DNA from: a virus | Strand: one strand, 5' to 3' | Virus record (IMG/VR): IMGVR_UViG_3300047318_000482 | Location: 1 to 64,000 of that record | Length of the DNA: 64,000 nucleotides | Shown: one piece after another, positions 13,255 through 16,325 of the stretch | Layout of the letters: each line of letters starts with the position of its first letter | Numbering within the stretch: the first letter of the stretch is position 1 | Position numbers and translations under genes: made by a program | The notes under the pieces: model-generated | Told to the model about the DNA's origin: nothing | Databases searched by the model: none | What the model saw: only the letters and a program-made list of their open reading frames with translations

Positions 13255-14055
13255 TCAGACGCGGTCGAAGGAGCGGCGCGGCTGGCCGGTGCCGGCGGCT
13301 TCGGCGCGCTTGCGGGCGATGGCTGCACGACGGGATGCATCGGTGGGGTGCGCGGCCGGGCCGGCGACGCGTTCGGCTTCTGCCACGGCTTCCGCGAATG
13401 CTGCCTCCGGCTCCCGGTTGGCGGGGAGGGTGGCGGCCCGGATCTGTCGCTCGCATGCGGCAGCGATGTCCGGGTCTTTGCAGGACCGGTCGGGCCGGTG
13501 GGTGAGGAGCTGGTGCCGGGGGGTCTGGAAGCCGGCGGAGGCGGTCTCCCGGGTACGGACCGGGCCGGGCTCCTGCGGTCGGGCCGGCTGGTCCTCGAGC
13601 TGGGATGTGGTCCGGTCGGGGGTGGCACCGACGGGCAGGATTTTCAGGGCGCGCACCGACGCCCCGCCGGGTGCCTGCTGGACGGTGGCGAGGACCTGCG
13701 CCTGGTAGAGGCGGAGTTGGGTGGCGTACGCGCTGGAGTGGGGTCGCAGGTGGAGCGTGCCGGTGTTGTGCTCGAGGCGGACCGCGGTCACGGCGTGGGC
13801 AAGGTCGGGGGCGATCGATGCCCACTGGTCGAGGATGCTTCCGCCGGTGGCGGGTGTCTCCCAGCCGTGGTCGGTCATCATGCCGGTGATGGCGGCGCCG
13901 AGGCCCAGGGGGTCGCGGCCTCCCCGGCGGATGGTGGTGCGACGGGTGGTCTTGTTCGTCTGCTGGGTGGGCCGGGTGCGGGCGGCGGCTTTGGCGGCGG
14001 CGAGGGCCGCTCGGGCGAGGTCGACACCGGATGAGGTGGGCTGCGGGGCGTTCAT
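13255..14055 (-). CDS. DciA/DUF721-family protein (helicase operator-like), 266 aa
   Basis: SGVDLARAAL.AA, RDPLGLG.AI..M..GW, LDQWASI, L.LRP.SSAYATQLRL typical of actinobacterial DUF721; coupled to rep. Confidence 0.8.
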   Translation of the reverse strand: MNAPQPTSSGVDLARAALAAAKAAARTRPTQQTNKTTRRTTIRRGGRDPLGLGAAITGMMTDHGWETPATGGSILDQWASIAPDLAHAVTAVRLEHNTGTLHLRPHSSAYATQLRLYQAQVLATVQQAPGGASVRALKILPVGATPDRTTSQLEDQPARPQEPGPVRTRETASAGFQTPRHQLLTHRPDRSCKDPDIAAACERQIRAATLPANREPEAAFAEAVAEAERVAGPAAHPTDASRRAAIARKRAEAAGTGQPRRSFDRV

Positions 14056-15380
14056 GACCATGCTCCCTGGCGGTCGAGGCGCGCATTCTGGTCGATGGCG
14101 AAGTCGACGAGGCGCTTGCCGTACAGGTCGAGGGCGTCGAGTTCGTCTTCGTCGAAGTGGGCGATGACCTCGGGCCAGATACTCCAGTCCATGCGGGCGC
14201 GGCGCCGGTCGTCGTCGGTGCGCTCCGGCTCCGGGTCGGGAGCAACCGTCCCGAACAGCACGGCGAGGGAGGCCTGGTCCGCCATCTCCCGGGCGACGGT
14301 GCTGTCCTCCCAGGCGACGGCCTGCGCCAGTTCCTGCTGCTGCCGGCTGTCCATGGCGATCCGGGCGCGGATGAATGCGACCGGGTTCTTGGGCCGCCAC
14401 CGCATCCCGGAGCACATGCCGTTGAGTTCGTCGGCGATACGCAGACCGTCCCAGCCTCGGTCCGTCCACGGGCGCAGCACGAACTCGAGGCGGCGTAGCG
14501 GCACCGTCTGGGTCCAGTTGACGAGGGCCCGCACCAGCCGGACCGTCTGGCCGGCCTTTTTGACGTCGACCGCGGTGCGGCGGCGCCCGTCGATCTGGCT
14601 GCTCTGGCGGGGGATCGGGTTCTTCGGCGGCCGAGCCTGCGAGGTGTAGTTACAACCACCCACTAGATCAACCTGACTCTCTTCCTTAACCACCGTTAGG
14701 GAAGGGGGCGCAAGGCCCTCGGAGGCGGGGTTGTCCACAGGCGGGTTATCCACAGGGTCCGGCTGCTTCCGGAGGTCCACGATGATCCGCGCGGTGTACC
14801 CGGAGCCGACGATCCGGTGGCCCATGGCGTGGTCGTAGACCGCGGGGATGACCGCGGCGTACACGGTGGCGGTGGCGGCGTATCCGCGCAGGCCGAGCAT
14901 GGGGCGCACGTTGGTGCGGGTGCCGTGCTGGACCCAGGCGAGGGCGCCGAGCTCACGGAGGTAGGACACGTGCCGCTTCACGGTGGCCTTGTCGATGCCG
15001 AGCCGGGCGGCGGTCTCGAGCAGGCAGTAGCGGGCGTGTCCGGTGTCGTAGTCCATGCGGGTGGCGAGGTCTTCGGCGACCTTCAGCGTGGTGGCGTTCG
15101 CGCGGCCGTGCAGGCCGGCTGCGATCAGCCATGAGACTGCGCGAAGCCACCGACGCGGGCCGGTCGCGCGCGACTTGGTGTGGGACACCTCCTGGCAGAC
15201 GCCGCGCACGAGACCGACTTGATCAGCACTGTAATCGATCAGGTGTTCGGTTTCGATGGTGGAGGCGTGCGTGTTTCTGGTGGAGTCAGGGCACTGGGTG
15301 TCGCCCGCACGAGGGGAGATAAGCCGCGAATCGCCCTGCGAGGGGATGCCAAGCTGACAAGAGGGGGTGCGCTGGGGCAC
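14052..15380 (-). CDS. Plasmid replication initiator (winged-HTH Rep), 442 aa
   Basis: HTH LLETAARLGIDKATVKRHVSYLRELGAL; internal DnaA boxes; adjacent to DciA and parAB. Confidence 0.7.
   Translation of the reverse strand: MPQRTPSCQLGIPSQGDSRLISPRAGDTQCPDSTRNTHASTIETEHLIDYSADQVGLVRGVCQEVSHTKSRATGPRRWLRAVSWLIAAGLHGRANATTLKVAEDLATRMDYDTGHARYCLLETAARLGIDKATVKRHVSYLRELGALAWVQHGTRTNVRPMLGLRGYAATATVYAAVIPAVYDHAMGHRIVGSGYTARIIVDLRKQPDPVDNPPVDNPASEGLAPPSLTVVKEESQVDLVGGCNYTSQARPPKNPIPRQSSQIDGRRRTAVDVKKAGQTVRLVRALVNWTQTVPLRRLEFVLRPWTDRGWDGLRIADELNGMCSGMRWRPKNPVAFIRARIAMDSRQQQELAQAVAWEDSTVAREMADQASLAVLFGTVAPDPEPERTDDDRRRARMDWSIWPEVIAHFDEDELDALDLYGKRLVDFAIDQNARLDRQGAWS
14641..14754. promoter_or_regulatory. 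Candidate intragenic origin: DnaA boxes TTGTCCACA (14731-14739) and TTATCCACA (14746-14754) next to an AT-richer tract
   Basis: Two consensus DnaA boxes in tandem within rep. Confidence 0.6.
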
Positions 15381-15476
15381 TATGTACCTGCCGTCCTGCG
15401 GACATGAAAAAGCCCGCTCGGTGGTGAAAGTGGTTCGTGAGGAACCTGAAGGTCGCTCCGGGAAACCGGGGCCTTA

Positions 15477-15572
15477 GCTCTGAGCGCCAACTCGGAGCCG
15501 TTGCACGAGGCCGCGCACGGTGCGCCAACACCAGCGGCCAGCGGTAGAGGAAGAAGCCCCCGCCAAGGGGCT
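15477..15572. ncRNA. Three tandem stem-loops with identical CGCCAA (plus) / UUGGCG (minus) loops in the rep leader; candidate antisense RNA and target
   Basis: GCTCTGAG-CGCCAA-CTCGGAGC; GGCCGC..GGTG-CGCCAA-CACC.GCGGCC; AGCCCC-CGCCAA-GGGGCT. Confidence 0.65.
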
Positions 15573-15596
15573 CAGGGACCTCCCGCTAGAAACTCG

Positions 15597-16325
15597 CTAC
15601 GTCACTCGATCTCCCTCAATGGGTGGGGTCTGTCCCACACGAATAACGCGCGGGTGGTCGATGGAGGTGCGGCGCTTCAGTTCCTGCGCCCATGCCTCGT
15701 CTGTGGCTCGCCGTGCGACCTCCCGGTCGATGGCGGCCATTTGGATAGCGTCAGCGGCTGACTCGCGTCGCTTTTCTGCGGCGTCCTGCAGCGCGACCAT
15801 GCGGTCATGCGCCTTCAGCAGGCCGGCCGGGAGGGTGATCGCTGTGTAGTGTCCGCGGATCCGGCCCAACTCCCAGGAGACACGCGCCCAGTTCTGCTCA
15901 CGCGCGGCCCGCTGAACGTGGCGTCGCATCGCCTCGAGAGCGCCCAGGTTGGTCGCGTCCTCGAAGGTCTGGCCCTCCAGCGCGATGTACCACAGGTTGC
16001 GGGCGCGGGTCTTGTCAGGCCGGTCGGGGCACAGAGCACGGAGCCGGTCGATCTCCGGAGTGAGGAGAGCCCGGATCTCCTTGGCCGTCGGGGCGGCAAG
16101 GTCTTCGAACTCCTGGTCTTCTGCAAGGGAGTACCAGTGTGTGTCGGGCTGGGCCCGGTCCAACCGCTCGTACTTTGTGCAAGCGGTGCGCACCGCGTAC
16201 TCGGCCTTGGCCTGCCACTCCTCACGGGAGGGCCAGGCGCGGTCGGTCACGCGACTGAGGGGGTAGTGGTGACAGGGCCCGTGTGCATCGGCGGTGTGAT
16301 GTTCACGCCGGAAATACGGGTCCAC
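15597..16325 (-). CDS. Hypothetical helical protein (start may be the GTG at 16250)
   Basis: Long ORF with weaker GC3 than its neighbours. Confidence 0.55.
   Translation of the reverse strand: MDPYFRREHHTADAHGPCHHYPLSRVTDRAWPSREEWQAKAEYAVRTACTKYERLDRAQPDTHWYSLAEDQEFEDLAAPTAKEIRALLTPEIDRLRALCPDRPDKTRARNLWYIALEGQTFEDATNLGALEAMRRHVQRAAREQNWARVSWELGRIRGHYTAITLPAGLLKAHDRMVALQDAAEKRRESAADAIQMAAIDREVARRATDEAWAQELKRRTSIDHPRVIRVGQTPPIEGDRVT

Follow-up and report, generated by a model that had tools for sequence, protein, structure and literature searches.

The element discussed here, a Streptomyces phage-plasmid, is a virus entry of 90,525 bp in IMG/VR (IMGVR_UViG_3300047318_000482). Its first 64,000 nucleotides were analysed; this stretch, a part of the record, is called the window. 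The window genes include ParA-like, ParB-like and WhiB-like ones and a cytosine methylase. Our subject is a short piece of DNA between two open reading frames (ORFs) of the minus strand, an upstream one (15597-16325) and one of 442 amino acids (14052-15380) with a GTG start at 15380. The latter is a putative replication initiator gene, here called rep. The DNA between the two folds into a row of hairpins with one and the same loop, and it is discussed here as the possible site of an antisense RNA that controls rep.

DNA similar to the rep region is found in pZL12/phiZL12, a plasmid-phage of Streptomyces (a third of 2.3 kb aligns at 77% identity), and in 85 Streptomyces plasmids. The 442-amino-acid protein itself had no match in Pfam, PHROGs, NCBIfam or the PDB sequences, and its names in GenBank and RefSeq are helix-turn-helix-domain protein, "cell wall protein" or simply hypothetical. 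It is called a putative Rep because it is a homologue of pZL12.20c, because of the database annotations and because it is followed by a DUF721/DciA-like gene (13255-14055, minus strand; NCBIfam NF002871, E = 2e-16, below the curated cut-off). A repA locus has reportedly been mapped in pZL12. In relatives, the gene after the putative rep is likewise labelled "DciA family" or "DUF721". Given this neighbour, a plasmid-borne helicase loader coupled to the initiator is a candidate. No tRNA-like gene was found in the window.

The hairpin array upstream of rep

The hexamer CGCCAA stands on the plus strand at 15485, 15523 and 15561, with spacings of exactly 38 and 38 nt, and each copy is the hexaloop of a hairpin with its own, unrelated stem. 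Stem-loop 2 (SL2; 15477-15498, plus strand, as are all hairpins below unless stated otherwise) has the stem GCTCTGAG/CTCGGAGC, 8 bp including one T.G pair, and its loop at 15485-15490. SL3 (15509-15539) is composed of an outer helix, GGCCGC/GCGGCC, and an inner one, GGTG/CACC, which closes the loop at 15523-15528. In SL4 (15541-15586) a lower stem GCGG-GAGG/CCTC-CCGC carries the apical one, AGCCCC/GGGGCT, with the loop at 15561-15566. Three hairpins with unrelated stems and an identical loop, located in the leader of the putative rep gene, is what an earlier sequence-only reading of this DNA had described, and this description is correct.

The trio does not stand alone. SL1 is present in a short form (15455-15472; GCTCCGG-GAAA-CCGGGGC). 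In most relatives SL1 is longer and ends in CGCCAA, as a fourth such hairpin, where the window has GAAA instead; it is because of this short, GAAA-capped SL1 that the window shows only three CGCCAA loops. Next to SL1 lies the hairpin GGTTC-GTGAG-GAACC (15432-15446), which in homologues has a nearly invariant stem and a variable loop; in L004 and L029 a replacement hairpin, CTGC../..GCAG, takes its place. On the other side of the array, the unpaired box CTACGTCA (15597-15604, plus strand) is conserved in nearly all homologues, and the upstream ORF ends with a TAG that lies in the complement of this box. It is followed by SL5 (15608-15630; GATCTCCC-TCAAT-GGG(T)GGGGTC), which is predicted in most homologues. 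One pair of SL5 reads T-A, T.G or C-G depending on the element, which is a path through G.U on the plus strand. Most relatives have a variable GC-rich hairpin after SL5. Read along the plus strand, the order is: promoter-like box, 5' hairpin, GGUUC-loop-GAACC, SL1 to SL4, CUACGUCA box, SL5. In the typical cassette SL1 to SL4 are about 38 nt apart, and SL1, SL3 and SL4 have extra lower stems.

The rep leader has a further hairpin, P0' (15398-15417, minus strand; GCGGGC-UUUUUCAU-GUCCGC), 18-37 nt upstream of the GTG start; a U tract is conserved in the hairpin loop. P0' had been listed as a fourth hairpin next to the ribosome-binding region. It is indeed present there, and in most homologues it is predicted with other stems (GGGGC/GCCCU, GGGCGC/GUGCCC, GAGAGC/GUUCUC). 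The G.U pair of P0' in the window is an A.C mismatch on the plus strand. On the plus strand of relatives, a CCCGC-UUCG-GUGGG hairpin overlaps the P0' site.

In the whole 90.5-kb element, the trio of the window are the only hairpins of at least 5 bp with a CGCCAA or TTGGCG loop, whereas permuted hexamers yield a mean of 0.48 such hairpins per whole element. Chance is thereby ruled out. Since there is no other hairpin with such a loop in the 90.5 kb, the opposite strand is also the only complementary partner in the element. An element-wide CGCCAA regulon was considered and rejected: the excess of the hexamer (58 vs 41) is a matter of codon usage, 27 of 30 copies within ORFs reading xxC-GCC-AAx. 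A triplet of CGCCAA, 18 nt apart, at 81146-81187 (outside the window) lies in plus-strand coding sequence (..IANAIKAAKQIEDANK..); it represents Ala-Asn/Ala-Lys codons, not hairpin loops.

Relatives, covariation and the strand of the RNA

A stretch of 301 nt matches 58 Streptomyces plasmids. The regions compared comprise 30 plasmid or phage regions with annotation, and 21 genome and 13 viral loci found via the Rep protein. A profile search detected the cassette in 51 of the 58 loci retrieved by similarity of rep or leader. A covariance model found it in 53 of 60 sources, always upstream of a rep homologue and on the strand antisense to it. Family members are pZL12, pSLE1, pSAM1, pCQ3/pCQ4, about 60 PLSDB plasmids and many viral contigs. 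The cassette of pSAM1 (NZ_CP012383, S. ambofaciens ATCC 23877; our L066) is located at 47.55-47.90 kb and has three UUGGCG loops and the same promoter box. RNA-seq of S. ambofaciens ATCC 23877 has been published (Jaffal et al. 2024, PMC11302927; Lioy et al. 2021, PMC8410849), and these transcriptomes include pSAM1. In the plasmid of locus L018, no second copy of the cassette was found.

Several carriers have no phage gene in the few kb around the cassette: a 239-kb conjugative plasmid, linear plasmids of 158, 210 and 429 kb, and a 59-kb circle. Because plasmids of this kind carry it, the cassette is regarded as part of a replicon type and not as a phage part. For the same reason the proposal that the hairpins switch between plasmid maintenance and lytic replication, which the sequence-only reading had made, is not supported.

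The right half of the cassette (SL2-SL5) is 80-85% identical in many plasmids with a diverged left half. Matches confined to one part of it are common: 15348-15458 alone matches pSAM1, S. pseudovenezuelae and NBC_01483 at 91-94% identity, and some twenty other plasmids match only 15469-15636, at 80-85%. Such a mosaic suggests that parts of the cassette were joined by recombination somewhere from the GGTTC hairpin to SL1/SL2.

Covariation was assessed in two alignments. The first comprised 27 sequences with the loop word of the window (class I, see below), aligned by MAFFT, with a structure of 43 pairs given by hand. In it, 98.2% of the cells are paired and 11 pairs show compensatory changes; none of 500 shuffles was as high, and slid controls reached 31-53%. 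The second comprised 52 distinct sequences of all classes, aligned by the covariance model R1; being fitted to the model, it leans towards the structure, and its values are 98.4% paired cells and 26 of 43 compensatory pairs (0/500 shuffles as high; slid controls 37-51%). Among these 52 sequences, compensatory changes are seen in seven of the eight pairs of SL2 and, for SL3, in all four inner and three of the six outer pairs. In SL4 four of the five apical pairs are compensatory; the lower stem is 100% paired, yet almost invariant. RNAalifold on plain MAFFT alignments recovered the structure only partly, owing to indels in loops and stems. The compensatory changes support the view that the hairpins are selected as single-stranded structures. 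The sequence-only reading had claimed as much from the unrelated stems and had proposed covariation in homologous rep leaders as a check; the stems do co-vary, and the loop word is kept within elements.

Which strand is under selection can be judged from the wobble pairs. An A.C mismatch on the plus strand would be a G.U pair on the opposite strand, and the ratio of the two is therefore a strand indicator. On the plus strand G.U:A.C is 44:6 when the structure derived from minimum free energies is mapped on the MAFFT class-I alignment, 36:8 in class IIc and 111:15 in the covariance-model alignment of the 52 sequences. A naive scan that allows G.T and A.C gave 105:105, which stems from spurious hairpins; the counts in conserved helices were used instead. 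Individual pairs behave alike: of the 52 sequences, 33 have U-A and 17 have U.G as the third pair of SL2, and the basal U.G pair of SL1 is kept in 42 of them. The loops of accessory hairpins read GAAA, GCAA, GUGA, GGAA or UUCG on the plus strand only. The wobble pair of P0', in contrast, lies on the mRNA strand. We read this as use of both strands, with the four main stem-loops probably selected on a plus-strand RNA.

The plus strand also offers a promoter for such an RNA. It is predicted at 15354-15383, with the -35 box CTGACA (15354-15359), an 18-nt spacer and the -10 box CACTAT (15378-15383), and it overlaps codons 1-10 of rep on the opposite strand. In 45 of 47 homologues the plus strand reads AGCTGACAAG without change. 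The spacer is fixed at 18 nt in length though not in sequence, and the -10 box is CACTAT or CAAGAT, with A2 and T6 retained. The bases under the box encode the rep start (GTG/TTG) and then Cys-Gln-Leu as TGT-CAG-CTT. In this element, TGT accounts for 13% of the Cys codons and CTT for 3.4% of the Leu codons. A constraint at the DNA level is argued, since synonymous variation is missing at these rare Cys-Gln-Leu codons. The RNA is predicted to start near 15390. Taken together, the G.U bias, the GNRA and UUCG tetraloops and the promoter-like box argue for a structured RNA read from the plus strand, antisense to the rep leader.

The overlap with the promoter-like box touches on the start of Rep. 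Rep residues 1-50 (15230-15380, minus strand) comprise short retained motifs (SCQL, GDSR, SP and a second Cys) between indel-rich stretches, and the G+C content at third codon positions (GC3) of this N-terminal extension is only 0.6-0.75. Part of the conservation of the Rep N-terminus is probably due to the antisense promoter rather than to the protein. An internal rep promoter ("TACAGT") with a shorter Rep was considered and rejected: in about 45 of 50 homologues, the reading frame that begins at the upstream GTG/TTG passes through the indel-rich sequence without a stop and joins the conserved domain in frame. For this reason 15380 was retained as the rep start. A TTGACG-like -35 in the CUACGUCA box was likewise dismissed as rep promoter; it has no -10, and its spacing varies. 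The ORFs upstream of this box differ widely (47 to 242 amino acids; DUF6221, methyltransferase, hypothetical). They share one TAG end within the box, and their last 10-13 codons overlap the conserved SL5 sequence. In the upstream ORF of the window, GC3 drops from about 0.9 to about 0.65 across the final 60 codons.

Could the rep mRNA leader be the only functional RNA? It would then be a cis-acting UUGGCG leader that senses a protein or refolds, with no antisense RNA involved. P0', near the ribosome-binding site, co-varies and has its G.U on the mRNA strand; a long-range pairing over the start codon is predicted; and the two strands fold equally well. Against this stands the G.U:A.C ratio of about 7:1 on the plus strand in the four main stem-loops. 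The U.G pair kept in 42/52 sequences and the alternation of U-A and U.G would be mismatched, or pair in one sequence and mismatch in the next, on the mRNA, and the GNRA or UUCG tetraloops exist on the plus strand only. In pZL12 and pSAM1, moreover, the loop word of the mRNA is the complement of that in the window; a protein that reads the loop would not tolerate this, whereas a sense/antisense pair would. We regard a purely cis-acting leader as the least probable of the explanations considered. As to the orientation, the sequence-only reading had placed UUGGCG on the mRNA side. This is true of the window, but the helices are kept paired on the CGCCAA strand, and in pZL12 and pSAM1 the two words are reversed.

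Loop classes, co-residence and possible partners

The word YGNCR is contained in 184 of 202 loops. When the loops of one element are compared in pairs, the central base of the word is the same in 96.6%, compared with 40.7% after shuffling (0/2000; kinship ignored), and all four bases, C, U, G and A, occur at this position across elements. The classes can be named after the plus-strand word. Class I (CGCCAA) comprises the window and the majority of elements. Class I' has CGUCAA on three or all four hairpins (L023, L038, L059-L061, L063). Class IIb has UUGGCG on three hairpins, as in pZL12, pSAM1 and others. Class IIc, with UGGCA or CGGCAA, accounts for 13 elements including L064. A distant class, UGACA or UGACU on five hairpins, is found in L054 and L058, two distant relatives by their Rep. 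As YGNCR is closed under reverse complementation, class IIb resembles a "flipped" class I. L054 and L058 are IMG/VR contigs with Rep identities of 38-46%. They have the same promoter box and five hairpins about 400 nt upstream of the rep homologues, and their loops read CUGACAA, GUGACA or UUGACUA, the central base being A.

The loop class does not follow Rep. Mapped on a tree of 43 Rep sequences, the classes require 18 changes, compared with 17.0 when the labels are shuffled. The nearest Rep relatives of the window (76-79% identical) belong to classes IIb and IIc, and no column of the Rep alignment is associated with the loop class (64 of 200 permutations do as well). The cassette therefore appears to pass by recombination from one Rep lineage to another without restriction, two very deep lineages among them, and it has the character of an independent module, as would be expected of an antisense RNA together with its target.

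These data also bear on another explanation, that the array is the replication origin, an "iteron" region of the Streptomyces theta type, in which extruded DNA hairpins present a repeated hexamer to Rep or a host protein. Streptomyces theta replicons such as pWTY27, pFP1, pFP11 and SCP2 do combine rep with an adjacent non-coding "iteron" that contains direct and inverted repeats, and the RepA of pWTY27 has been proposed to recognise a folded-back structure (PMC3583192). The genus is the same, a regular spacing of 37-38 nt, concerted word changes and differing words in co-resident replicons are also seen in iterons, and DNA hairpins tolerate G.T pairs. The iterons of these plasmids, however, are words of 7-8 bp bound by their own Rep; here the word occupies the loops on stems that co-vary, and it shows no dependence on Rep. 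An iteron array would be one conserved repeat that co-evolves with Rep, as iterons and Rep normally do. What is found is a shared 5-6 nt, arms that are unrelated and nevertheless co-vary, which duplex sites do not require, and a loop class unrelated to the Rep tree or to any Rep residue. The GNRA and UUCG tetraloops and the long-range helices that enclose the hairpins (SL1, SL3, SL4) are typical of RNA, and the promoter-like box is directed into the array. An origin of this kind is decidedly unlikely.

If the loops determine specificity, replicons that live in the same cell should differ in them. Four strains (NBC_00873, NBC_01240, NBC_01369 and NBC_00842) each contain a large plasmid with CGCCAA and a phage-plasmid of 88-92 kb with CGUCAA, the two cassettes being otherwise 84-89% identical. 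A fifth strain, NBC_01238, has a IIc (YGGCR) cassette together with a plasmid presumed to be of class I (CGCCAA), so that a difference is probable here too. The co-resident phage-plasmids are mutually related, and over this stretch two of the large plasmids do not differ at all. The link between loop class and co-residence is suggestive, not proof. As judged from these comparisons, the loop may well be a specificity determinant.

A concerted change of the loop word within an element calls for a common partner, and this partner need not be the rep leader. The plus-strand RNA could be a platform read by a trans factor, be it a multimeric RNA-binding protein or another RNA, or it could be a primer or origin RNA. 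Unrelated stems with one shared loop word are the architecture of a protein-sponge RNA; CsrB and RsmZ present GGA loops to CsrA in this way. A length of 200-270 nt is also long for a countertranscript. RNA-based replication has a precedent among the phage-plasmids of actinobacteria (Wetzel et al. 2020, PMC7157519). However, no candidate partner co-varies with the loops: Rep does not, and the upstream neighbours differ in length and annotation. Elsewhere in the element there is no complementary loop or motif, other copies of CGCCAA being in-frame Ala-Lys/Asn codons, and with a Rep and DciA-like pair present an RNA-only origin is unnecessary. A platform or primer RNA is therefore unlikely, though somewhat more probable than the origin.

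In contrast, an antisense RNA that brings its own target would account for the opposite strand as the only partner, for the uniform loops, for the difference between co-resident cassettes and for the lack of co-evolution with Rep. A broader proposal goes further: the central base of YGNCR, displayed on three to five hairpins, would be a code that defines orthogonal copy-control groups, and Streptomyces plasmids and phage-plasmids would swap the cassette between unrelated Rep lineages and thus be able to live in one host, its loops being either multivalent kissing sites or read by a trans factor. This loop code is put forward tentatively; we would not yet bet on it.

A candidate kissing-loop countertranscript

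The explanation we favour, with a probability of roughly 55%, is a countertranscript that governs rep and incompatibility by means of multivalent kissing loops. A structured plus-strand RNA of about 200-270 nt would start about 10 nt from the rep start codon and run away from rep. Its sequence would be complementary to the complete 5' leader that precedes the putative initiator, as far as the Shine-Dalgarno region. Its row of stem-loops, three here and four in most relatives, would expose one hexaloop (CGCCAA here, YGNCR generally) to the complementary loops of the rep leader, UUGGCG, a word of the U-turn type YUNR. Kissing of the two sets of loops would lower the synthesis of Rep and thus set the copy number, either by blocking translation or by refolding the leader near P0' and its U tract. 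Because the loops are identical, any loop of the regulator could nucleate with any loop of the target; identical loops would also avoid self-pairing within one RNA. The central loop base would be the letter of specificity that allows related replicons to coexist. The leader has features that such a mechanism might use, the co-varying P0' with its conserved U tract and the predicted long-range pairing that covers the start codon. A clean terminator was not found in the leader; the U tract lies in a hairpin loop.

Some observations weigh against this explanation. The production of RNA from either strand, the pairing of the two RNAs and the lowering of Rep by this pairing are all inferred. In a single search for sequencing runs, those listed were DNA metagenomes from rhizosphere and soil, none of them RNA. 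The promoter of the plus-strand RNA is an argument from conservation; a strict sigma-70 scan did not flag the box, and CACTAT is a weak -10. For the rep mRNA, no promoter was identified upstream of the array, so that transcription of the leader through the hairpins is likewise deduced. The complementarity of sense and antisense RNA is automatic and does not by itself explain why the loops within an element are identical; a shared trans factor would explain this more directly. The set of co-resident replicons consists of related plasmids from one strain collection, in which about 62% of random pairs would differ anyway, and a discordance of five in five has a chance probability of about 0.09 before relatedness is allowed for. 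The label Rep rests on position and annotation. Finally, folding both strands, as the sequence-only reading had advised, does predict the hairpins but does not single them out. The two strands fold equally (mean difference 0.06 kcal/mol; plus strand more stable in 20 of 52), and the single-sequence folding energies are ordinary (z = -0.8 and -1.0). The evidence for structure is for this reason comparative, not thermodynamic.

The loop word has a history in enterobacterial plasmids. In ColIb-P9 and IncB, translation of rep needs a leader peptide and a pseudoknot, in which the loop pairs with a sequence close to the ribosome-binding site. UUGGCG is indeed, as had been pointed out for this locus, a loop word of ColIb-P9; it stands in the title of Asano et al. 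1998. The Inc RNA/repZ pair of ColIb-P9 and RNAI/repA of IncB would share with the present cassette an antisense RNA opposite the rep leader and the hexaloop pair UUGGCG/CGCCAA as nucleation site. In IncK1/K2, plasmids of the I-complex, bases of the top loop decide incompatibility (PMC10724649). UUGG within UUGGCG conforms to the U-turn word YUNR, on the mRNA strand here and on the plus strand in pZL12 and pSAM1.

The differences are substantial. There is one stem-loop in the enterobacterial systems versus three to five with the same loop here. Inspection by eye revealed no CGCC or CGCCAA between the array and the GTG start that could serve as pseudoknot partner of the ColIb-P9 type, and no leader ORF coupled to rep; an overlapping ORF (15286-15531) is out of frame with rep. 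There is no relationship in sequence or in Rfam, the host phylum differs, and the putative Rep of this element matches no searched protein family. A search of Rfam 15 (E up to 10) gave as best match an unrelated human element with E = 1.7 and 16 bits, compared with a gathering score of 37; a hit to a known family, which would have removed the novelty, was not obtained. The antisense idea of the sequence-only reading thus survives in part: a counter-transcript is plausible from the promoter-like box, the G.U bias and the tetraloops, and so is specificity of the loops, but membership in the ColIb-P9/IncB type is not supported, neither the CGCC site nor the leader peptide having been seen by eye.

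Other antisense systems are similar in one respect or another. In ColE1 and R1 the loop bases set incompatibility, and in ColE1 single changes of a loop base create new incompatibility types. RNA I of ColE1 is, like the RNA proposed here, an antisense RNA with several hairpins; it kisses its target, RNA II, at more than one complementary loop simultaneously. There, however, the target is a primer RNA, no Rep is involved and the three loops differ; here the target would be a rep leader and the loops are identical. CopA/CopT of R1 and the attenuation systems of pT181 and pIP501 resemble the proposed system in the position of the countertranscript promoter, at or in the rep start, from which it reads across the leader, and in a structured regulator that controls Rep translation or causes premature termination. 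These regulators measure 60-150 nt and address one or two target loops, and here no convincing terminator is formed. Cluster A mycobacteriophages are likewise actinobacterial phage-plasmids, whose replication requires a non-coding RNA beside parABS (Wetzel et al. 2020, PMC7157519). They do so without a Rep, and no architecture of repeated loops has been reported for them, whereas the present element has a putative Rep and a DciA-like gene.

In the literature searched, no description of such control in Streptomyces theta replicons was found. If the proposal is true, the cassette would be the first candidate for antisense-RNA copy control in large replicons of this kind. Widespread plasmid and viral records would gain an unannotated RNA gene, and their incompatibility would become predictable from sequence via the loop word. 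The kissing pair UUGGCG/CGCCAA of enterobacterial plasmids would moreover have been put to use a second time and independently, here multiplied into a multivalent array in which a single central base of the loops seems to switch specificity. For antibiotic-producing strains, this would provide a handle for tuning copy number or for designing compatible vector pairs.

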